Of a stretch of DNA of 64,000 bases, positions 347 through 33,715 are shown piece after piece. The stretch comes from a bacterium (GTDB lineage: Bacteria; UBA8248; JACPRG01; G963555815). The stretch is taken from contig OZ244653.1 of NCBI GenBank assembly GCA_965218795.1, positions 2,400,001 to 2,464,000 on the forward strand. Reading direction: 5' to 3'. Under the pieces are notes generated by a model. It made no database searches. It was given only the letters and a program-made list of their open reading frames with translations, and was not told the DNA's origin. The number at the start of each line of letters is the position of its first letter. The first letter of the stretch is position 1. A program made the translations under genes and the position numbers.

Positions 347-3407
<3,061 letters not shown>

Positions 3408-3411
<4 letters not shown>

Positions 3412-3567
3412 GGCGTCTCCCACAATCGACGGAGCGGCACGGCGTAGAGGCCGTCGCCGAAACGCGCGCTGGTCTCTCCATCGTAGAGTACCAAGCCACC
3501 CGAGAATCGCTTGCCGGCGGCGTTCGCGAGCTTGCGCAGGCCGTGGAAATCCGCCGCGGTCACCGTC
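3408..3567 (-). pseudogene. 3' remnant of an AAA-ATPase/DUF4143-type gene
   Basis: Alternative frame reads [52 protein letters not shown]; stop overlaps the hsdR start (GTGA). Confidence 0.65.
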
Positions 3568-4570
3568 AACGTCGCCGGGCGCTTCCGCCCGCTGGCCTTG
3601 GATGCTCGGATTGAGTTTCACCCTTTTCTCTCTTGATGATCCAGTCCATCGCGATCTGCTTCAACGCTTTCAGGCGGGCTTTGTCGCGTTCCGTCATTTC
3701 TATTCCCGCAGCGCGAATAAACCACAGATAGGCGCAGTAGGACACGGTACCCGATCCCCTGTCCGGGATATGAAACAATCTCATGGCCTCGCCAAACTCC
3801 CAGGACCACGTTGGACGGTCAGGCAGCACTTCCTTCGGTTTCGTGCGCCAAGTGAAACAGGGCAGCGTCGGAAGCCGCAGTTCTTGGTCCATGTTTCCGG
3901 CGGTATCGAATACCAACTGCCTGAACGTCTTGCTCTTGGCCGCACGAGCCGCTTCCTGGACCAGATACCATCCGGCCAACACGACGAACACACTGGCATA
4001 AAACTCGAAGAAAGTCCGCGCCGGCTGGGGCATGTTGTTCGTCCAGTCGATGTCGACATGGGCACCGCGCTTGTTCCTCATCCTCGACACGACTTCTCGA
4101 ACAGTCATCGTCGTTGCGTTCGCCTGCACAAGCTCTTGCCTTCCCCACTTGGCGAGCGACAAGCCGGCGTTTGCGTTGTTCCAGGGCCAGGACATCTGAA
4201 ATTGGTTCGTGTCCGCCTTGTACGCCAAGCCGTGCAACGGGAAAACAGCGCTCAGGTTGCATATCGCAACGCCCCTGGCGAGACTCGACGGCGGTTGCGG
4301 CTCCGGCGGCTCAATAGTCAGGTAAATAGGCTTCCATAACTCATAGACATCGCCGTCGAGTAGGCGGTTGTCGGCCAACGAAGGAAGTGTCGGTTTCTCT
4401 ACGCAACGCAGCAATGGTTGATTACCGAACAGTATCTTGTGCACGGCCACCGATATGCTGGCCGACACCCTGCGGAGAGTTCCTTCCGTCGGCGCACTTG
4501 TCTCCAGCGCACGCAAACCTTGTGCCACCGAAACCAGCGCATCGCCGAACGGCACGCGGTAGTCCATCAT
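3566..4570 (-). CDS. Hypothetical protein inserted in the RM locus, with an RNKRGAH HEPN-like motif
   Basis: Protein-like part of ORF 3566..5041 from MMDYRVPF; lower GC than hsdR; start uncertain (4570 or about 4609). Confidence 0.6.
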
Positions 4571-4639
4571 GCTCTTGGTTTTCTCGTTGACTTTCCAAGG
4601 AGGGATCATGCCTCTGCTCCGATGGAATGGTGCTCGCTC

Positions 4640-5287
4640 ATCTTCTCTGCTCCTCCACAAGTCAAAAACTCCAACAACAGTCTCTGCCAACACGGCCGAC
4701 GGGCGGCATTGCGCGGCCCGGTCCCGTCGAGGCAGATCCGAGTCAGCACGTCGAACCGCCGTTCCTTGAGATACGTGAACGCCTCGGTCGACAGGTGGGA
4801 CACCAGTCCGTCGACGCTCGCCGGCCGGGAGTATTTCTCCGCGTAGCACCGCCACAGCACATGCACCCCTCGCAGCAGACGTAGCTCCACGGGTCGACGC
4901 CTTCGAACGTGACGCCGATGGCGCGGAGCACGACCACCGGATCGCTCCTGTACTTTCGCTTGCAGTCCTCGGTGTTGTGGCACAGGTGCGATGCGACGAA
5001 TCCGTTGAGCGACTTCGGCACTTCGGCCGGCAGGACGGCACCGCCGGGCGGCCGTACCGTAGCTACCGACGTCCCACACGACGACCATGCCGACCGCCCG
5101 TGTCCCGGTGTCCCAGAGATACCGGACCATCCTCAGTCGATAGACGTAGTCCCGAAGCACGAGGCAGATCCACCTGCAGCGCGCCGGCGTCGGGCGGCTT
5201 GTTGTCGTACCTCCGCGCGGCGCGGAGCTTGGCTTCGGCGGCGTTGCGGATGTCAGCCACCTCATCCTCCGACAATCTCGAACTCAC
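4640..5287 (-). pseudogene. Probable degraded unknown gene, pieces in several frames
   Basis: Protein-like segments alternate between ORFs 5063..5287, 4606..5265 and 4743..5021. Confidence 0.3.
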
Positions 5288-5438
5288 CTATCTCTACCGC
5301 TAGGTCAACGGGAATCCAATCTTATGGTGGAACCCGCTTGAGTTGGAGTCCTCACCTGGAGTTTCGCAGGAAATACGAATGTTGCACCAGTGCTTCGAAT
5401 TCTGCCTTGTGCTTCATAAACAATCTCTCCGCACTACT

Positions 5439-7751
5439 TTAATTCCCAACGCGTACCTCCCCCGACACCAGCTTCGGCAGCAGCGTGTCACGCAGGGCAG
5501 CGAGGGTACGGGATTCTGTAATGCTGGACCTGATTCTCGCATCTAGCGGCCGAGCGCATGAATCGAACACATTAACGATGCTAGGGTCTGGTTCAATCAC
5601 CCGCAAGGCTTCAAACTGACTCTTGTTGATAGCACCGAATACTGTCCCTGTATGCTCATATTCTCGGAGTCGCCCCTGAATCCTCCAAGCAGAATAGTAG
5701 GTGAATGGTATCGTATCTAACTTGTGCCTCAGCGCCGCCACGCCTCGACCGATACAACATCTTTCCCAAGCCATGTTGATATCCCCTACGGGTGCGCGCA
5801 CGCTAACGAGGGTATCCGCGGGCTGGGCAATGCGGGTTGGAGCGGTACAGAACTTGCGATTTTCAGGATAACGGAAACCAAAGTCAGACCGGCCCTGGAA
5901 GAAAGGCAAGCCTTCACCGTGTTCGTTGTAGGTGCTGCCTGGCGGTGACTGTCCCATCGTTAGGTCGAAGCACTTCCCCAATGCCTTAACCTCCCACCCC
6001 TCCGGGATCTCGCCCAGTTCGGAATCCACAAAACTATCCGGAAACAAGGCCGCGATCTCTTCGCCCATGCCGTCAAGATAGGCGCGGGCGCGTTCGACCG
6101 TCCAATCACTCCCCCCTGGAGGGGGACTCGCAGAAGCCGAGCCGTGAGGCGACGGCTGATGCGGTGGGGGGAACCCCCTCCCCGAAAGACTGTCGTCTTT
6201 CGACCCTCCCTCAAGGGGAGGGTGATGCGTCAGTGCGGCATAAATGCTCTCCAGCACCCCGAAGCAGTTCTCGAAGACTTCATTGTTCCAGAAGCGCAGG
6301 ACGCGATAGCCTCTTTGCCGCAGAAATTCCTCGCGCTCGCGGTCGTGGGCTTTTCGTTCCGCGTGGCCGCCGCCGTCGAGTTCGATCAGCAGCTTTTGGG
6401 AGATGCACGCGAAGTCCACGATATACGGACCGATGGGCTGTTGGCGGCGGAATTTGTGGCCGTCCAGTTGTTTGTCGCGCAGGCAGTGCCAGAGGAGACT
6501 CTCCGCGTTGGTCTGGTTGCAGCGGAGGGTTTTGGCGTTTTGCAGGGTCTGTTGGGTGTATCGGCGCTTGATTTCCCCCCACCTGTTCGTCCCCCCACCG
6601 GCTCGGCTGCGGACTTCGTCCTTGCCTTGCCGACTCCCCCTCAAGGGGGGAGTGATGGATGGCGTGGCGTTCGAGGGCGGCCTTGGCCGACTCCCTATCG
6701 GGAGAGGAGTGGTGTCTGAAGGGGCCGCATCGGTGGACCGGGCTTTGGCCGACTCCCCCTCAAGGGAGGAGTGAGCGGCGGCGTGGCGCTTGAGGGCGGC
6801 CTTGGCGCGGACGGGGTCGAAATCGACGAACCAGGACTTGAACAGGGCCCGGGCCATGGCCTCCAGGGTCTCGTTCATCCGCCGGTTCAACTCGATCTTG
6901 TCGTCCAGCGTGCCGAGGACATGGGCGATGGCGCGTTGTTCAGGGAGGGGGGGAAGAAGGAAGCGAAACCGCTTGATGCGTTCAGGCGATGTGTGCCTAA
7001 CGGTCGTCCCGGTGGCGCTTGCAAGCACCTCATGTCGATACTCTGCGCTACACATGACATAGTAGAGATATCTTACGTTTAATGACAGTTTGTCTTTGAT
7101 CACGACTTTTCCAAGCCGCTGGTTGTGCAGATAGCGGCGTCCTTCTGGATACGTCGATACAAATGCCGGATAACCTAGGGTATCCGTCTGCTTGCTCAGA
7201 TCGGTCATTGTAACGAGCAAATCGCCGTTACTAAGAATGAACTCTTCGGGGGGTGAACCATCGTAATATTTGAACTTATCGTCTTTAAATCCGCCACCAA
7301 TTGCGAAGTTACCAGGCGTCAGCAATACATCACCGCATTCTTCTTCGTGGATAAACGCTCCTTTGAAAGCGAACCCATGCCTTATGTCGATTAAATCAGC
7401 AAGCGATGTTTGAACCCACTCGCCCGCCACACCCTGCTCTTTGTTCTCCGCCAACACCACGTGCTCCGCTTCAATCTGCTTGCGGAACTGCTCGGGCACG
7501 TCGTCCCAAACGAACAGATCCACGCGAAAGGGCAGACTGCTTTCCTCGAACGCTTCCCTGAGATCGGACACCCGGCGGTCCTGCTCCGGCGTAGCGAAGA
7601 CCACCAAGTCGAGATCGGATTGCGGGCGGGAGGTCCACTTGACCCGGGAGCCGTAGACCCAGGCTTCAGTGTTCGGCAGATGCCGTTCGAGCAGCGCCAG
7701 AAGGGTTTTTCGCTGATCCGCGGTGATGTCGATGGGCCGGTCTATTCCCAT
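5439..7751 (-). CDS. hsdS: Type I RM specificity subunit with N-terminal minimal nucleotidyltransferase and internal DUF559 domain
   Basis: YGSRVKWTSRPQSDLDL (GSX10DXD); TRD1 then PPLPEQRAIAHVLGTLDDKIELN; KFRRQQPIGPYIVDF..IELDG..H (DUF559); SELGEIPEGW then TRD2; LRDTLLPKLVSGE. Confidence 0.9.
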   Translation of the reverse strand: MGIDRPIDITADQRKTLLALLERHLPNTEAWVYGSRVKWTSRPQSDLDLVVFATPEQDRRVSDLREAFEESSLPFRVDLFVWDDVPEQFRKQIEAEHVVLAENKEQGVAGEWVQTSLADLIDIRHGFAFKGAFIHEEECGDVLLTPGNFAIGGGFKDDKFKYYDGSPPEEFILSNGDLLVTMTDLSKQTDTLGYPAFVSTYPEGRRYLHNQRLGKVVIKDKLSLNVRYLYYVMCSAEYRHEVLASATGTTVRHTSPERIKRFRFLLPPLPEQRAIAHVLGTLDDKIELNRRMNETLEAMARALFKSWFVDFDPVRAKAALKRHAAAHSSLEGESAKARSTDAAPSDTTPLPIGSRPRPPSNATPSITPPLRGSRQGKDEVRSRAGGGTNRWGEIKRRYTQQTLQNAKTLRCNQTNAESLLWHCLRDKQLDGHKFRRQQPIGPYIVDFACISQKLLIELDGGGHAERKAHDREREEFLRQRGYRVLRFWNNEVFENCFGVLESIYAALTHHPPLEGGSKDDSLSGRGFPPPHQPSPHGSASASPPPGGSDWTVERARAYLDGMGEEIAALFPDSFVDSELGEIPEGWEVKALGKCFDLTMGQSPPGSTYNEHGEGLPFFQGRSDFGFRYPENRKFCTAPTRIAQPADTLVSVRAPVGDINMAWERCCIGRGVAALRHKLDTIPFTYYSAWRIQGRLREYEHTGTVFGAINKSQFEALRVIEPDPSIVNVFDSCARPLDARIRSSITESRTLAALRDTLLPKLVSGEVRVGN
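6105..6806. repeat. Cluster of GC-rich palindromic (REP/RIME-like) units flanking the DUF559 domain
   Basis: GCCGACTCCCCCTCAAGGGGGGAGTGA at 6629; variants at 6686, 6748 and 6202; inverted copy at about 6106-6171. Confidence 0.85.
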
Positions 7752-8158
7752 GTCGTCCCGCTCATGGTCTGATAGAGGCCGATGGCGTCGTCGATGAAGG
7801 CGGGCATGAGCTCCAGGCAGGATTGCGCCTTCTCGCCACTGTAGTCGTGGGACGTATCGACGCGGGCGTCGGCGTAATGCAACCATTGCTCCAGCGGCGC
7901 GGCGAACAGGTCGTTCTCGTACGCCAGTTTGAAGATGGGTTTGGGGCTGTTGGGCGCGTCCGCGATGCCCAGATCTTCGATCAGGTATCGTTTCAACACC
8001 TTCCACAGACAGTCGTAGCAGGTCTCGAAACGCTGAATGACCGACTCGGCGACGGCTTCCTGGGTCAAATCGGGCAGGGAGTCGTCAGGTTCTCGATAAT
8101 TTTCGTACTGCTCCTCCAGCCGCTTGAGCGACATGCGATATTTGTCGTAATCGATCAT
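7742..8158 (-). CDS. HEPN protein (HI0074 nucleotidyltransferase substrate-binding family), putative RNase toxin
   Basis: IQRFETCYDCLWKVLK, SPKPIFK, RVDTSHDY (RX4HXY); overlaps the MNT-hsdS start by 10 nt. Confidence 0.85.
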   Translation of the reverse strand: MIDYDKYRMSLKRLEEQYENYREPDDSLPDLTQEAVAESVIQRFETCYDCLWKVLKRYLIEDLGIADAPNSPKPIFKLAYENDLFAAPLEQWLHYADARVDTSHDYSGEKAQSCLELMPAFIDDAIGLYQTMSGTTWE

Positions 8159-8181
8159 GCTCTACCTTCGGCTCTCTTTCA

Positions 8182-8423
8182 TCAATTGGATACCCGACGG
8201 AGAACCAGGGCCTCGACGACCTCGGCGCCGTCCGGGGTCCCTTCCGCCGGATGGAGCGGCTCTCCGTGCCGTCCCTCCCAGTCATGTGTACCGGTGTTCA
8301 GACTGATCTTCGTTATGGAGATCTGCCGCGGAGACAGGTCGTCGCAGCCATCTTCGTAGCCGTTCACCACCACGCGCAGGTCGGCGGGATATTCTCGAAG
8401 CAGGTCGATCAACTCACTGACTA

Positions 8424-8427
<4 letters not shown>
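8182..8427 (-). CDS. Small hypothetical protein (81 aa)
   Basis: ATGA overlap with the hsdM stop, [34 protein letters not shown]. Confidence 0.7.
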
Positions 8428-10052
<1,625 letters not shown>

Positions 10053-10147
10053 GCGCCTTCCGTAAGGTTTTTTTTAATCATATCGCCATGAAAGCAGAAT
10101 TTCCATCCGGACTGTGTCGACTCATTCCCCGTTTCTCAAAGATGGAT

Positions 10148-10177
10148 TTGACCATTGAGGGAAGCGTAGAGTATCCT
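10148..10177 (+). promoter_or_regulatory. Candidate sigma70 promoter for the SBP gene
   Basis: TTGACC-18 nt-TATCCT upstream of 10231. Confidence 0.35.
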
Positions 10178-10230
10178 GCTGTGGAGCACAGTGAACTGAA
10201 TATTGTATGCAACCTCTGGAGGGCAAGCTG

Positions 10231-11259
10231 ATGAAGAGATTCCGTTCGATTCAAGGGTTGTTGGCGGTATTGCTGTGCCTTGGATTCGTCATGATGGGTA
10301 TGTCTTTGCCGGGTCGGGTGTCCGCAGCGAAGAAAATCGTCTTCGGGTTCGATTGGGTGCCTTACGGCAAGTACGTGGGATATTACGCCGCCCGGGAGAA
10401 GGGCTTTTACAAGAAGGCCGGATTTGACTTGACGTTTCAGCGGGGTTACGGGGGAGCCAGCACGCAGGTTGGCAATGAGAAGCAGGATTACGGGATCGAA
10501 AGCGTCGGCGGTATCATCATCGCGCGCGACAAGAAGGTGCCGATCAAACTGGTCTCCATGTGGCATGAGCGCCTGATGATGAACGTGGTTGTTCTCAAGA
10601 GTTCGGGGATTAAGACCGTGAAGGACCTGGAGGGGAAGAAGCTCGGTGTCACGATCGGAGACGCCATACACCGAAACTGGCCGCTCTTCACCGAGGCTGT
10701 CGGCCTGAAGAAGTGGAACCTCGTCTCCATGCGGCCCGCGGCCAAGAACCCCAGCCTTCTGTCCAAAACAGTGGACGGGATTCTCACCTATGCCACAGTG
10801 ACCCTGGCGCTGAGGGTCATGGCGAAGAAGCGGGGCGACGGCGTGAAAGAGTTCCTCCTGGGAGATTATGGAGTGAATGTGGCCCAGGACGGCATTATCG
10901 CCCATGACAAGCGAATCGCGGAAAACCCCGATGAGGTGAGACGCTTGGTCGCCGCGAGTCTCAAGGGCAACGCCTGGGCCATTGAAAATCCGAAAGAGGG
11001 GGTAAGCATCTTCCAGAAGCACATCCCGGATCAAAGCCCGAAGATGACGGCGCTTTTCTGGGACCTCAGCAGCCGCTACCAAGTTTGGGGGAACCTGAAG
11101 AAGCATGGGCTGGGATACATCGACCGAGGCATCATGGAGTCCACCCAGAAAGCGATTGCCAAGGTGTATGGGATGAAGAATCCTCCGGCGTTGGATGATC
11201 TCTACACGTCCAGGATGCTTCCGAAGGGACTGCCCAAGCCGAAGCTGCCCGCAATGTAA
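10231..11259 (+). CDS. ABC substrate-binding protein, NMT1/THI5-like
   Basis: Signal peptide, FDWVPYGKYVGYYAAREKGFY, GIKTVKDLEGKKLG. Confidence 0.85.
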   Translation: MKRFRSIQGLLAVLLCLGFVMMGMSLPGRVSAAKKIVFGFDWVPYGKYVGYYAAREKGFYKKAGFDLTFQRGYGGASTQVGNEKQDYGIESVGGIIIARDKKVPIKLVSMWHERLMMNVVVLKSSGIKTVKDLEGKKLGVTIGDAIHRNWPLFTEAVGLKKWNLVSMRPAAKNPSLLSKTVDGILTYATVTLALRVMAKKRGDGVKEFLLGDYGVNVAQDGIIAHDKRIAENPDEVRRLVAASLKGNAWAIENPKEGVSIFQKHIPDQSPKMTALFWDLSSRYQVWGNLKKHGLGYIDRGIMESTQKAIAKVYGMKNPPALDDLYTSRMLPKGLPKPKLPAM

Positions 11260-30352: not shown

Positions 30353-30991
30353 ATGGCGGCGGGGCTGAAAACGATGGGGCCGGACGAGGTCGAACGGGCA
30401 TCCGCCGAGGGGGCCGTTGTGCTCGATTTCCGCGACCTGGAGGACTTTGCGGCCTCGAGGATCCCCGGGGCAATCTTCATCGCTTTCAACGCGCGGAGCG
30501 TCCCCAGGCACGTGCCGGCCGTCGCGCCGCCGGGCTCCCGCGTGGTCTTGATTGGAGATGAGGACCGTGTCGGGCAAATCCATGCCTGGTTTGAATCGGC
30601 CGGCGGATATGAGGTGCTCGGCTGGATGGAAGGGGGTATGGAGTCCTGGACCGCGGCCGGAAAACCCGTGGAACCGCTTCGAAGTCTCTCCGTCGAAGAG
30701 TTGCACCGTCGCTGGAGCGGGGACCGGGAATCGTTCGAGCTGATCGACGTGCGCGAGCCCTTTGAATGGAACCTGGGGACCATCGAGGGATCGCGGCTTG
30801 TATCCCTGGGCGGGCTTCTCGAAAAAATGGGAGAGCTTGCGACCGACCGGGAACTGGTCTTCATTTGCGAGCAGGGGATGCGGAGCGCCACGGCCGCCGC
30901 CCTGTTCTCCGGCCGGGGATTTCAGAAAACGGCCAACGTGGCGGAGGGATTCGGGGCTTGGTTCGATGCGGGGTTCCCGGTCGTCGAGTGA
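30353..30991 (+). CDS. Tandem rhodanese-domain protein
   Basis: VLDFR..RIPGA; IDVREPFEW..CEQGMRS..GFGAW. Confidence 0.85.
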   Translation: MAAGLKTMGPDEVERASAEGAVVLDFRDLEDFAASRIPGAIFIAFNARSVPRHVPAVAPPGSRVVLIGDEDRVGQIHAWFESAGGYEVLGWMEGGMESWTAAGKPVEPLRSLSVEELHRRWSGDRESFELIDVREPFEWNLGTIEGSRLVSLGGLLEKMGELATDRELVFICEQGMRSATAAALFSGRGFQKTANVAEGFGAWFDAGFPVVE

Positions 30992-31222
30992 TCCGTCGGG
31001 GGGATCGTTGCCCGTGAGGGCTTGAAGAATTTGCCCCCGATCATGGGTGGGCGACGAGCCTGCTCACAAACCCTGGGGTAGGTCAACCTTGGCGGGCATC
31101 GGAAATCGTCCCTCCTGCGCCGGGTTTTGACAGCCTGCACGGCGCTCCCGTCAAAGGGGGAAGCCTCCGGACAGGCTCTCGGAAACCCATATCGTATGCG
31201 AATTTCACCCTGAACGTCCGGG

Positions 31223-33715
31223 TTAGAATGCATACGAGATGCCCAGATAATAGAATCCGCCGTTGAATCCAAAGGGAGAAGACGAGGGGTATTTGTTGCC
31301 AAGAATCGTGGCATTCGGATTTTCGGTCGGATACGTGTTGAACAGGTTTTCCGCCCCCGCCGCGAGTGTCAACCCGCTTTTGAAGGTGTATGAGGCTTCC
31401 GCGTCCACGAGCCACCGTTCCGAGGCGTTGATGGGGGGGAGTCCGCTTCCGGCAAAGAAAAACTCGACGAACGCGTCGTAGTAGTGAAGCCGGGACAGGA
31501 ACCGCCAGGGACCCCGCCGGTGGTCGGCCGTCAGCGAGAACCGGAACTCCGGCAGGCCCTCTTCGAGCTGGCGCACCTTTTCACGGTGGATGATGTCCGG
31601 ATTGAAAGCGTCCACCTTGGTTTGATTCCAGTTGCCCGCGAAAGTGAAGGTGGTGTCACCGCCAAGCATCTTCGCCGGGTAAGTCGCCACCACGTCGATC
31701 CCCTGCGTGGTGGTGTCGAAATCGTTGGTGAAGAACCGCACCTGGGAGAAACTGCTCGCATCCGCGACACCCTGGGCCAGCAGTGCGTCGATATCGTCCT
31801 TGGTTAAATTCAGGCCGCTGGTCTGCGCAATCCGGTCTTTCACCTTGATGTTGTAGTAGTCGATGGTGACGGCAAGGCCGCCGATTTCGAACACCATGCC
31901 GGTGGAAATGTTGACGGACTTTTCCGGAGCCAGCGGCCGCCCGCCCTTTTGCTTCGCTATCGGGCTGGTCGGCGGCAGCGTGGCTACATCCGCCAGCTCC
32001 CCCTTGTCGTTGAGGTTGGTGCTCACGTTGCGAACGTTCGATTGTCCAACGGTCGGCGCGCGAAAGCCCGTGCTGACCGAACCGCGAAACGCAAAACTGT
32101 CCGTCGCTTGCCAACGGGCGGCCACTTTGCCGTTCAGGGTGTCTCCGAAGACTTCGTAGTCCTCATACCGGCCCGCTACGCCGACTAGAACGTCCTCGAC
32201 CACGTCGGCTTCCAGGTCGATGTACCCGGCGTAGCTGCCGCGGTTGAACGCGCCCGCCGTATCGGGCCGAAAGCCGGGAAACCCATTGGAGCCGATGCCG
32301 AAGCCCTGCCTTGCGAGATCCTCGTCAATCAAGTAGGAGTTGGGTTCTCCGGCTTCGATCTTGAACTCTTCCTCGCGATACTCCAGGCCGAGGGCGAGGT
32401 TCAGGGGAGAGGAAAAAATGTTTGTGTCGAACGGCCTGGACAGATCGACGTTGAGCACGCGATCCGTCTCGGTGTAGGCGCCGGTGTTGTAGTCCGTCGG
32501 AATATCCGAGCCCAGTCTGGCGAGCTGGGGATTGATGGTGTTCGACATGAAAAAGTCCACGCCGTGTTGACCCAGAACGGCGCTCGCATCGTAGCGCCAG
32601 CCGTCGAGCCATACGTTGTCGCTGGACAGTTCCCCCCGCAGACCGAAGGCCATGCTCCAGTCGCGCACGACGCCCCCGAACGTCGGCGTAAACCCGCCGG
32701 GAAAGCGATCCCTGAACGAAAAGATCTCGCCCCCTTCCAAGGGGATCTGCAGAAGATTGCCGTCACCATCGATGAACACGCCTATCCGTTTCTCGGGATG
32801 TCGGAAGAAAAACCCTCCTTCCACCTCGCGTTCCGCATAGTTGCCGAATGCGTAGGCTTCGATGCCGTTGACCAGTTCGAGGCCGAAGTTGGTGAAGAAT
32901 TTATAGTCGTAGTGGAACTCCGGCGCGCCCCAAACCTGCGCCGCGGGTGTGCGCACGTGGGTATTGCCCGCGTCAATCAGATCCTGCGCGTCGCCGCGCT
33001 GGACGCTGCGGCTGGTCGGGTCGGCCTGTTTGTACTCGAAGCTGAAGTTGGCGAAGCCCGATTGGGTCAGGGGCAGGCCGAGGTTGCCCGCAATATGGAA
33101 CGTGTCGCCGTCTCCCTTGTAGTACTGGCCCCAGCGGGTTTCCACCGTGCCGCCGTCGGGAGCGTCTCTCAACACGAAATTCATCACGCCGGCGATGGCG
33201 TCGGAACCGTACTGAGCGGACGCGCCGTCGCGCAGCACTTCCACGCGTTTGATCGCAATGGCTGGTATCACGGCAAGATCAGGGGCATGCGACCCGTCCG
33301 AAACGCCGGTCGCCACGAAGGTGATCACGGACGAACGATGGCGCCGTTTGCCGTTGACCAGAACCAGGGCGGCGTCCGGGGACAGCCCGCGCAGGTTCGC
33401 CGGGCGCACCAGCGTCGCGGCGTCGCTGATGGGCTGCTGGTTGACGTTGTAGGATGGAACGGTGGCGGACAGGAGAGAGTCCATGTCCGTGACGCCGTAA
33501 TGCTTGAACGCGTCACCGACGATCACGTCCACCGGCACCGGAGAATCATGGGCCGAGCGTCCCGGATGACGGGACCCCACCACCACCACCTCTTCGAGCA
33601 CCACCTCTTCGGGTTTCGCGGCCCCCCGGTTTTCCTGTGCGGCGGCCGGTGAAACCAGCAGCATCAGCGGGCTCAGCAACAGGATGCGCTTCCATACCCC
33701 TTCCCATCTACTCAT
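31223..33715 (-). CDS. TonB-dependent receptor
   Basis: EEVVVVGSR, LVLVNGKR, RVEVLRDGASAQYGSDAIAGV, terminal F. Confidence 0.95.
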   Translation of the reverse strand: MSRWEGVWKRILLLSPLMLLVSPAAAQENRGAAKPEEVVLEEVVVVGSRHPGRSAHDSPVPVDVIVGDAFKHYGVTDMDSLLSATVPSYNVNQQPISDAATLVRPANLRGLSPDAALVLVNGKRRHRSSVITFVATGVSDGSHAPDLAVIPAIAIKRVEVLRDGASAQYGSDAIAGVMNFVLRDAPDGGTVETRWGQYYKGDGDTFHIAGNLGLPLTQSGFANFSFEYKQADPTSRSVQRGDAQDLIDAGNTHVRTPAAQVWGAPEFHYDYKFFTNFGLELVNGIEAYAFGNYAEREVEGGFFFRHPEKRIGVFIDGDGNLLQIPLEGGEIFSFRDRFPGGFTPTFGGVVRDWSMAFGLRGELSSDNVWLDGWRYDASAVLGQHGVDFFMSNTINPQLARLGSDIPTDYNTGAYTETDRVLNVDLSRPFDTNIFSSPLNLALGLEYREEEFKIEAGEPNSYLIDEDLARQGFGIGSNGFPGFRPDTAGAFNRGSYAGYIDLEADVVEDVLVGVAGRYEDYEVFGDTLNGKVAARWQATDSFAFRGSVSTGFRAPTVGQSNVRNVSTNLNDKGELADVATLPPTSPIAKQKGGRPLAPEKSVNISTGMVFEIGGLAVTIDYYNIKVKDRIAQTSGLNLTKDDIDALLAQGVADASSFSQVRFFTNDFDTTTQGIDVVATYPAKMLGGDTTFTFAGNWNQTKVDAFNPDIIHREKVRQLEEGLPEFRFSLTADHRRGPWRFLSRLHYYDAFVEFFFAGSGLPPINASERWLVDAEASYTFKSGLTLAAGAENLFNTYPTENPNATILGNKYPSSSPFGFNGGFYYLGISYAF

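Follow-up and report, generated by a model that had tools for sequence, protein, structure and literature searches.

In the 64,000-nt stretch of contig OZ244653.1 analysed here (further called the window, in which all positions are counted unless another record is named), a type I restriction-modification (RM) operon lies on the minus strand, as do all the genes of relevance, in the order hsdM, orf81, HEPN gene, hsdS, ORFan and hsdR. The specificity subunit HsdS of this operon begins with a minimal nucleotidyltransferase (MNT) domain, and the HEPN gene ends within the first codons of hsdS. This MNT-HsdS fusion is real and recurs in relatives from numerous phyla. An earlier note on this DNA had described the HEPN gene, with an intact RVDTSHDY motif, as overlapping the start of hsdS, and the MNT domain, with an intact GSX10DXD motif, as the N-terminus of HsdS. 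Both descriptions hold: the overlap amounts to 10 nt, and an MNT domain of about 101 residues precedes a full HsdS with two target recognition domains (TRD1 and TRD2). The explanation towards which we lean is that HEPN and MNT form a toxin-antitoxin (TA) pair similar to the type VII systems, with the antitoxin tethered to HsdS, and that silencing of the toxin depends on the expression and persistence of HsdS, which would result in addiction and/or an abortive back-up defence.

Architecture and relatives of the MNT-HsdS fusion

In Pfam searches, residues 28-105 of HsdS correspond to PF18765 (Polbeta nucleotidyltransferase, 6.6e-10) and PF01909 (NTP_transf_2, 1.5e-6), residues 111-297 correspond to Methylase_S, and both halves of HsdS are covered by the PADLOC Specificity_I models. 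The AlphaFold2 (AF2) model of the 770-aa protein, built with 93 sequences (mean predicted local distance difference test, pLDDT, 79; predicted template modelling score, pTM, 0.59), consists of confident modules: MNT (residues 10-101), TRD1 (113-266), the central conserved region CR1 (269-338), an inserted DUF559 domain (400-508, pLDDT ~80), TRD2 (574-720) and the C-terminal conserved region CR2 (723-763). Low confidence was assigned to the linker (104-109) and to the disordered flanks of DUF559 (343-398 and 510-538). The common HsdS plan of two TRDs and two long helices is present, with Foldseek matches to 3okg, 5ybb, 1yf2, 1ydx and 2y7c. MNT before TRD1 and DUF559 before TRD2 appear to occupy pseudo-symmetric positions, each after a conserved helix. 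The solved structure nearest to the MNT domain is HI0073 (1no5; E 5e-16, fold template modelling (TM) score 0.90, root mean square deviation 1.5 A), and the short MNT of Legionella pneumophila (8xeo) matches it with a TM score of 0.83. The HEPN protein is nearest to HI0074 among solved structures, and it passes the NCBIfam model of that family, TIGR01987, with 56.1 bits at a cut-off of 55.8.

The junction was checked in Logan contigs from four public runs of one study, placed on positions 1400-8200. Two runs, X1 and X2, each contain an 897-nt contig identical to 6891-7787 (0 differences), which spans the HEPN/MNT overlap, the entire MNT, the linker and most of TRD1. Since the assembly may itself derive from the sample of these runs, the relatives are the stronger argument for the fusion. 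The earlier note had allowed for a stop codon between MNT and TRD1 and for a fusion of only sporadic occurrence. No such stop was found in the contigs or the relatives, and the fusion proved to be frequent in each of the surveys described below.

One genome per species was scanned with the MNT domain, and the best 80 of 119 relatives (MNT 60-86% identical) were taken as the locus set. According to the record titles these loci come from Nitrospirota, Verrucomicrobiota, Acidobacteriota, Binatota, Latescibacterota, Pseudomonadota and Rhodothermota, and further from Gemmatimonadota, Planctomycetota, Nitrospinota, Spirochaetota, Actinomycetota, Bdellovibrionota and Thermodesulfobacteriota. In 64 of the 80 loci MNT and parts of HsdS share one reading frame, and the open reading frame (ORF) reaches at least 450 aa in 60. 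The earlier note had also asked how often a HEPN gene lies directly upstream; a HEPN match was found there in 69 loci, 56 of which combine it with the fusion. The HEPN/MNT overlap is 10 nt long in nearly all of the 80 loci (consensus ATGGGANTAG/TGA/TAA), and hsdM is found upstream in 61 of the 67 loci having HsdS parts.

Protein searches gave a similar picture. The 120 best matches of a word-indexed search with the whole HsdS were classed by BLAST against its own segments: 52 carry MNT and DUF559, 50 carry MNT without DUF559, 9 have DUF559 only (several of them N-terminally truncated) and 9 have neither. An exhaustive phmmer search with the MNT domain against 1.84 billion cluster representatives (50%-identity clusters) yielded 157 clusters at E<=1e-30. 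Among the best 150 of these, 91 are at least 450 aa long (78 of the 91 with the CR1 motif), 42 measure 161-449 aa, mostly run into TRD-like sequence and look truncated, and 17 do not exceed 160 aa. No MNT match was obtained in phage records at E<=1e-5, and the cluster names of 10 relatives present at NCBI were uninformative. The distance from HVVL at the end of MNT to the Trp opening TRD1 is well kept: among 138 fused proteins it measures 11 aa in 80 and falls within 9-12 aa in 106. An in-frame internal start preceded by a Shine-Dalgarno sequence occurs within the linker in only 6 of 43 loci, so initiation of HsdS on its own is not conserved.

The identity of TRD1 and TRD2 among relatives ranges from 23 to 90%, compared with 67-91% for MNT (34-43% in other MNT lineages). 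As far as sequences can tell, this contrast of a conserved framework with shuffled TRDs is as expected of a working, recombining S subunit. The GC content of the TRDs (0.50-0.54) is lower than that of the conserved parts (~0.65), and the overall pattern indicates that the framework spreads horizontally with swapping of TRDs. In a survey of 51 genomes of the phylum, the MNT profile was detected in 14, namely the own genome and 13 of 23 from one other genus. None of the six other genomes of the own family gave a match; the cassette was therefore acquired horizontally.

A maximum-likelihood tree of 112 MNT domains contains three well-supported clades, A (80 rows; 99/93), B (21; 100/99) and C (7; 98/96), each with HsdS-fused members. 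Lineage B has its own HEPN (RNNTAHLY) directly upstream; the layout hsdM, HEPN_B, MNT_B::HsdS is seen in L084-L086 and a free pair in L082. Rearranged forms comprise the tandem MNT_C-MNT_A-HsdS of L008 (5671-8229) and L027 (5470-7638), both with two Polbeta stretches by Pfam, and L042 (5198-6010), where MNT_B is fused to HEPN_A and followed by MNT_A::HsdS. In several loci two different HEPN/MNT pairs stand in series between hsdM and hsdS. A distant fused set, with MNT 34.7% identical, is represented by plasmid pZMOB01 of Zymomonas mobilis ATCC 10988 (NC_017180.1; L101/L102), the only PLSDB plasmid that matches. Searching with its N-terminus returned 150 proteins at E<=1e-10, and 118 of the 120 listed carry a nucleotidyltransferase together with Methylase_S. 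The proteins of this set, from Xanthomonas, Ectopseudomonas mendocina/Pseudomonas, Ferrovum, Methylobacillus, Methylobacter, Nitrosomonas, Azoarcus and others, are named solely as S subunits. The hsdRMSp locus on plasmid pZM32 of strain ZM4, with a viable hsdSp deletion, was considered as experimental evidence and set aside, because the paper (PMC8432527) mentions no nucleotidyltransferase or HEPN.

HEPN-then-MNT pairs with the same order and overlap also exist outside RM loci as stand-alone units (L023, L066, L067, L072, L074, L079, L082, L106-L112), which means that the module is an independent mobile unit that was captured.

The HEPN/MNT pair as a tethered toxin-antitoxin system

The residues on which a toxin-antitoxin function would rest are strongly conserved. 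Across 56 intact HEPN relatives, H104 and Y106 never vary and R99 and D105 reach a conservation of at least 90%; in the MNTs of the same intact pairs G34, S35, D46, D48 and D78 are invariant. The GSx10DxD motif is present in 79 of the 80 loci, the sole exception being the inner MNT of L027 (DLG), which no longer has its cognate HEPN. Of 64 full-size HEPN translations, 59 contain Rx4HxY, and the remaining five include at least three (L016, L038, L070) that read through stop codons. Each of the 12 strong HEPN matches obtained in the phylum (E<=1e-46) is followed immediately downstream by MNT; MNT-HsdS without an adjacent HEPN occurs in 11 of the 80 loci and in one locus of the phylum survey (G017:C32, L104). 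The distribution of HEPN and MNT is asymmetric, as expected of a toxin and its antidote.

Published work provides the biochemical frame. In Shewanella oneidensis and Thermococcus the GSX10DXD motif of MntA transfers AMP to the tyrosine of RX4HXY, a transfer needed for neutralisation (PMC7641770), and related HEPN/MNT pairs were shown to be toxin-antitoxin systems (PMC7641770, PMC4621449). A short MNT of L. pneumophila, although it lacks the long helix at the C-terminus, AMPylates its HEPN as well (PMC11586414). The missing helix fits an MNT domain whose C-terminus runs straight into another protein.

Based on these data, the following course of events is plausible. The HEPN protein would act as a dimeric RNase whose catalytic site is formed on Rx4H. 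Using ATP and the GSx10DxD motif, the tethered MNT would AMPylate Tyr106 beside the catalytic site and in this way switch the RNase off, as in HepT/MntA. MNT would be translated by coupling from the HEPN stop codon and would be made only as a part of HsdS. With MNT present only within HsdS, newly made HEPN would stay silent only as long as HsdS is synthesised and survives. The RNase would then be freed if the operon were lost or shut off or if HsdS were destroyed, and the outcome may be stabilisation of a mobile RM cassette (addiction) and/or an abortive second defence that acts once the RM system has been knocked out.

Several observations weigh against the tethered-antitoxin explanation and have to be set beside it. 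An antitoxin of the MntA type is an enzyme, for which a tether is unnecessary for neutralisation; AMPylated HEPN stays off unless it is de-AMPylated; and an N-terminal MNT would survive hsdS truncations lying downstream of it. No fixed contact or docking between MNT and the rest of HsdS is predicted in the AF2 model. Ten of the 11 HEPN-less loci keep the catalytic motif of MNT, so the domain persists without a toxin. Nor is the fusion a fixed state: within clade A the starred branches force at least five changes of the stand-alone label, which means that free and fused states were interconverted repeatedly, and in one genus at least seven stand-alone HEPN-MNT pairs are found against four fused ones of the same lineage. 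At the level of family models, the HEPN of the locus matches PF08780 only (Pfam, E<=0.01) and not PF01934, and MNT scores 37.4 bits with the NCBIfam MntA_antitoxin model NF047752, below the cut-off of 60. The gene order, a further difference from HepT/MntA with its antitoxin-first arrangement, is toxin first with MNT downstream in all related loci, stand-alone pairs included. Judged by its sequences, the pair is a sister family of the curated HepT/MntA models and not an equivalog. Finally, hsdM is intact and hsdR is broken; since hsdR is disrupted, the genome has no restriction for a back-up defence to support, and the HEPN/MNT module accompanies at most a methyltransferase. The earlier note had proposed the locus as a candidate guarded type I RM system, of which the HEPN/MNT pair with both motifs on HsdS and the TA-like asymmetry are retained, and the guarding of restriction is not applicable to this genome.

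The chief competing explanation, which we regard as unlikely though worth serious attention, is that of a passive hitch-hiker: a selfish TA cassette inserted between hsdM and hsdS, with MNT next to hsdS owing to the toxin-first order of this subfamily, would have lost its stop codon, giving a neutral fusion with no coupling to the RM complex that is carried along by a successful mobile RM cassette. The stand-alone pairs outside RM loci are in agreement with it, as are the movement of the operon between phyla (MNT 60-86% identical over more than 10 phyla, yet found in 0 of 6 genomes of the own family), the flexible linker without docking and the repeated interconversion of fused and free forms. 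A neutral fusion should, however, decay or vary, whereas the linker keeps its length of 11 aa in 80 of 138 proteins, the fused form predominates in the nearest 150 clusters, at least three deep MNT lineages and the distant fourth set are all fused to HsdS, and the tandem MNT-MNT-HsdS proteins (L008, L027) retained the tether after rearrangement. Somewhat less probable still is the tether as a sensor, with MNT silencing HEPN only as long as HsdS sits in its normal M2S1 (or R2M2S1) complex. AMPylation would then stop and RNase-mediated abortive infection set in upon attack on this complex, be it by anti-restriction proteins that mimic DNA or by Stp-like peptides, through proteolysis of HsdS left unassembled or through loss of HsdM; the RM system would in this case carry its guard as a covalent part. 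In a bolder extension of the sensor idea, DUF559 might provide the specificity subunit with a nuclease of its own and hence with restriction independent of HsdR.

It is also conceivable, but distinctly improbable, that the pair is not a TA system and acts as a two-subunit nucleotidyltransferase, the role first put forward for HI0073/HI0074, in which HEPN binds the substrate and some other target at or near the RM complex is modified, such as HsdM, HsdR, DNA ends or a phage molecule, whereby restriction would be regulated or extended. HI0073 and HI0074 as the nearest solved relatives, the Pfam label of PF08780 (nucleotidyltransferase substrate binding protein) and the intact catalytic motif in 10 of 11 HEPN-less MNT-HsdS loci are compatible with such a role. 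On the other side stand the invariance or near-invariance of Rx4H and of the acceptor tyrosine, the constant company of HEPN with MNT (12 of 12 in the phylum) and the related pairs proven to be toxin-antitoxin systems (PMC7641770, PMC4621449). Moreover, stop-bearing HEPNs are found beside intact MNTs (L016, L038, L070), the order of decay expected of a toxin, and the only MNT without the catalytic Asp (L027) is the one whose HEPN is gone. An artefact, in which mis-assembly or a frameshift error of the high-GC genome created the fusion or the in-frame DUF559, can practically be dismissed. Although many overlapping spurious ORFs occur in the window and the neighbouring hsdR contains frameshifts, the contigs of X1 and X2 are identical over the junction, the fusion is present in 64 of 80 genome loci and 102 of 120 database proteins, and the DUF559 insert stands at one position in 52 of 120 proteins. 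The tethered TA pair is retained as the preferred explanation.

Operon features and neighbouring genes

The features of the locus are collected in Table 1. The HEPN stop codon (7742-7744) sits within codons 3-4 of hsdS. An alternative 855-aa ORF, started with GTG and extending up to 8006, was rejected, as it is merely the hsdS frame remaining open upstream of the ATG. A scan of 3400-10400 for promoters and terminators detected 2 promoter-like sites against 1.6 expected, a yield near chance that carries no information. The DUF559 cassette inside hsdS, the disrupted hsdR and the conserved orf81 had not been mentioned in the earlier note.

Table 1. Features of the hsd locus in the window and, in the last row, of the related plasmid operon.
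Feature	Position	Strand	Basis
hsdM, 542 aa, first gene of the operon	8424..10052	-	Pfam N6_Mtase 2.4e-109, HsdM_N 7.2e-27; PADLOC MTase_I 8e-220
orf81, 81 aa, conserved	8182..8427	-	tblastn in 33/80 loci; 17 invariant columns
HEPN toxin candidate, 138 aa, HI0074 family	7742..8158	-	PF08780 1.6e-21; TIGR01987; 1jog E 3e-7
Rx4HxY motif, R99-V-D-T-S-H104-D-Y106 (RVDTSHDY, residues 99-106)	7841..7864	-	sequence
hsdS, 770 aa, ATG at 7751, stop codon 5439-5441	5439..7751	-	ORF
HEPN stop/hsdS start overlap, 10 nt, ATGGGAATAG	7742..7751	-	sequence
MNT domain, HsdS residues 1-101	7449..7751	-	PF18765, PF01909; 1no5; AF2 pLDDT ~90
GSx10DxD catalytic motif, G34 S35...D46 L47 D48; third Asp D78	7608..7652	-	sequence
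MNT-TRD1 linker, residues 102-110, AENKEQGVA	7422..7448	-	AF2 pLDDT <50 at 104-109
TRD1, residues 111-266	6954..7421	-	Methylase_S 8.5e-15; PADLOC Specificity_I 8e-97; confident AF2
CR1, central conserved helix, residues 269-338	6738..6947	-	AF2 helices 269-309 and 312-338; invariant block N289...K317
In-frame DUF559 cassette with terminal inverted repeats	6105..6656	-	domain 6231-6548, residues 402-507, PF04480 3.4e-40
TRD2, residues 574-720	5592..6032	-	PADLOC Specificity_I 574-766; confident AF2; 23-89% identity among relatives
CR2, C-terminal conserved helix (residues 723-763) and tail	5442..5585	-	AF2 helix; conserved LAALRDxLLPKLxSGE
ORFan, ~344 aa, between hsdS and hsdR	3566..4600	-	no family match
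hsdR, disrupted	347..3621	-	tblastn of intact relative L018 falls in three frames
pZMOB01 operon	hsdM 30878-32470; HI0074-family HEPN 3-392; S subunit with N-terminal Polbeta 389-1972; hsdR 1969-5154		

The DUF559 domain has the fold of 3hrl (NGO0050; TM 0.87, 46% identity) and contains IELDGGGH, corresponding to the D...ExD..H core. The cassette is bordered by inverted repeats at 6105-6130/6631-6656 (92% complementary) and 6155-6172/6590-6607, and a partial second copy of its left end is located at 6748-6806. It is the only DUF559 copy in its own genome. Stand-alone DUF559 genes, 38-63% identical, occur in 10 of 50 other genomes of the phylum, and 6 of 10 inspected loci, among them L090, L092, L093 and L100, share the terminal hairpins TCCCCCCTTGAGGGGGA and TCCCCCTCAAGGGGGGA. 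In L090 and L092 the hairpins flank the DUF559 gene about 475 nt apart, and DNA alignment with three DUF559 loci showed homology across the gene, which in these two continues through both ends. Within hsdS the hairpins are translated (HSPLEGES, PPLEGG), and the insert stands in frame in the linker between CR1 and TRD2. In a survey of PD-(D/E)xK enzymes, DUF559 is placed together with Vsr and a group I intron homing endonuclease (PMC3424549). The cassette of about 550 nt has the look of a small nuclease element of mobile or homing type. Read joints 6023->6802 and 6171->6591, at which single contigs connect the end of CR1 directly with the beginning of TRD2 or omit a portion of the cassette, were considered as traces of an insert-less or variant hsdS and rejected; their sides span at most 30 letters in a metagenome, they most likely derive from other organisms and they are not evidence of excision.

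An hsdR match of at least 300 aa within ~6.3 kb was found in 1 of 9 DUF559-bearing loci and in 30 of 56 without DUF559 (Fisher p 0.028, a value to be read with the facts that related loci are not independent and that a longer hsdS shortens the downstream reach). That the DUF559 insert and hsdR are alternatives is only a hint. In comparison with the intact relative (L018, 1058 aa), the hsdR of the window is broken near 1633-1646, where ~18 aa are missing, and by one extra base at 1495. A contig of run X2 covers 1522-1683 with 0 differences and supports the first break. At 1495, roughly half of the mixed-organism depth (thousands) is without the base, both forms being present.

The ATG of orf81 overlaps the hsdM stop codon (ATGA), and orf81 is translationally coupled to hsdM. 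In its 33 loci orf81 is always located between hsdM and HEPN; the 17 invariant columns were counted among 26 sequences, and the consensus starts with MTVSELIxLLxx and ends with ALVLRRxSN. Pfam, PADLOC and NCBIfam gave no match for it, the nearest atlas clusters are unnamed (some of them from phages), and its AF2 model is poor (pLDDT 64). Judged by this conservation, orf81 is a real conserved gene. For the ORFan there was no relative among 5.8 billion proteins, no match in Pfam, PADLOC, NCBIfam or the atlas and no tblastn match in the 80 loci; the stretch is of lower GC content (0.58-0.59) and is covered by contigs of the own organism only. By these comparisons the ORFan is placed outside the conserved system.

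Significance and comparison with known systems

The architecture is common, comprising most of the nearest 150 clusters, more than 10 phyla and cultured Zymomonas, Xanthomonas, Pseudomonas and methylotrophs, and it is hidden under the name "restriction endonuclease subunit S". This affects the annotation of defence systems and also the interpretation of hsdS knock-outs made for better transformability. The recurrence of the fused layout in many phyla suggests that cell survival is tied to expression of the RM operon, by a mechanism that is plausible, and it bears on the persistence and spread of type I RM cassettes. With a putative RNase-disarming enzyme being a part of the subunit that defines RM specificity, a testable handle is offered on the wiring of first- and second-line defence.

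Anantharaman et al. (2013) connected many HEPN families with RM operons, proposed PrrC-like back-up roles, described that RM-associated HEPN proteins fuse to nucleases, helicases and ATPases and not to methylases, and found MNT almost always 5' in MNT-HEPN dyads (PMC3710099). The text of that article contains no HsdS, "specificity subunit" or "S subunit"; the check covered the text, and the legend of Figure 5 defines "RM_TRD". No description of an MNT-HsdS fusion was found in the literature searched, as far as the articles were available. It can be said that the fusion represents a widespread variant of type VII TA systems and of RM-embedded RNases, undescribed as far as the searches reach.

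HepT/MntA of S. oneidensis (SO_3166/SO_3165) is similar in that a HEPN with RX4HXY adjoins an MNT with GSX10DXD and the genes overlap (PMC7641770, PMC4621449), and silencing by AMPylation of the motif tyrosine is likely by analogy. The HEPN of that system belongs to PF01934 and its antitoxin gene comes first, in contrast to the PF08780 (HI0074) HEPN and the toxin-first order found here; moreover, the present MNT has neither a free C-terminus nor the long alpha-4 helix and constitutes the N-terminal domain of HsdS. HI0073/HI0074 of Haemophilus influenzae (1no5, 1jog), which among solved relatives are the nearest in sequence and fold, are two separate small proteins, whereas here MNT is carried on a 660-aa HsdS body inside a type I RM operon. 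In FhepTA, a fused MNT-HEPN, MNT is likewise tethered by a linker, and the fusion alters the stability of MNT, the linker being of importance (PMC13000451). MNT is joined there to its own toxin, and here to an unrelated DNA-recognition subunit with the toxin remaining separate.

Embedded defence genes of type I RM, BREX, DISARM and Hma systems (Payne et al. 2024; bioRxiv 10.1101/2024.01.29.577857) resemble the present locus in having an RNase-type module among core RM genes. They are separate genes, and the main text is without the words "MNT" or "nucleotidyltransferase". PrrC of the EcoprrI type Ic RM system is also a HEPN RNase encoded within a type I hsd operon (PMC3710099), and the general idea of an RNase held off by RM components and released upon attack on the RM system may be shared. 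The likeness to PrrC put forward in the earlier note stands on this conceptual level; the ABC-ATPase domain that defines PrrC is absent, and the 138-aa HEPN protein carries PF08780 only (Pfam). PrrC is an ABC-ATPase-HEPN fusion without an enzymatic antitoxin and under non-covalent restraint, in contrast to the minimal HEPN described here with its putative modifying enzyme covalently included in HsdS. Links between RM systems and suicide RNases have so far been mainly PrrC and inference from gene neighbourhood; in the MNT-HsdS proteins the link is a peptide bond.

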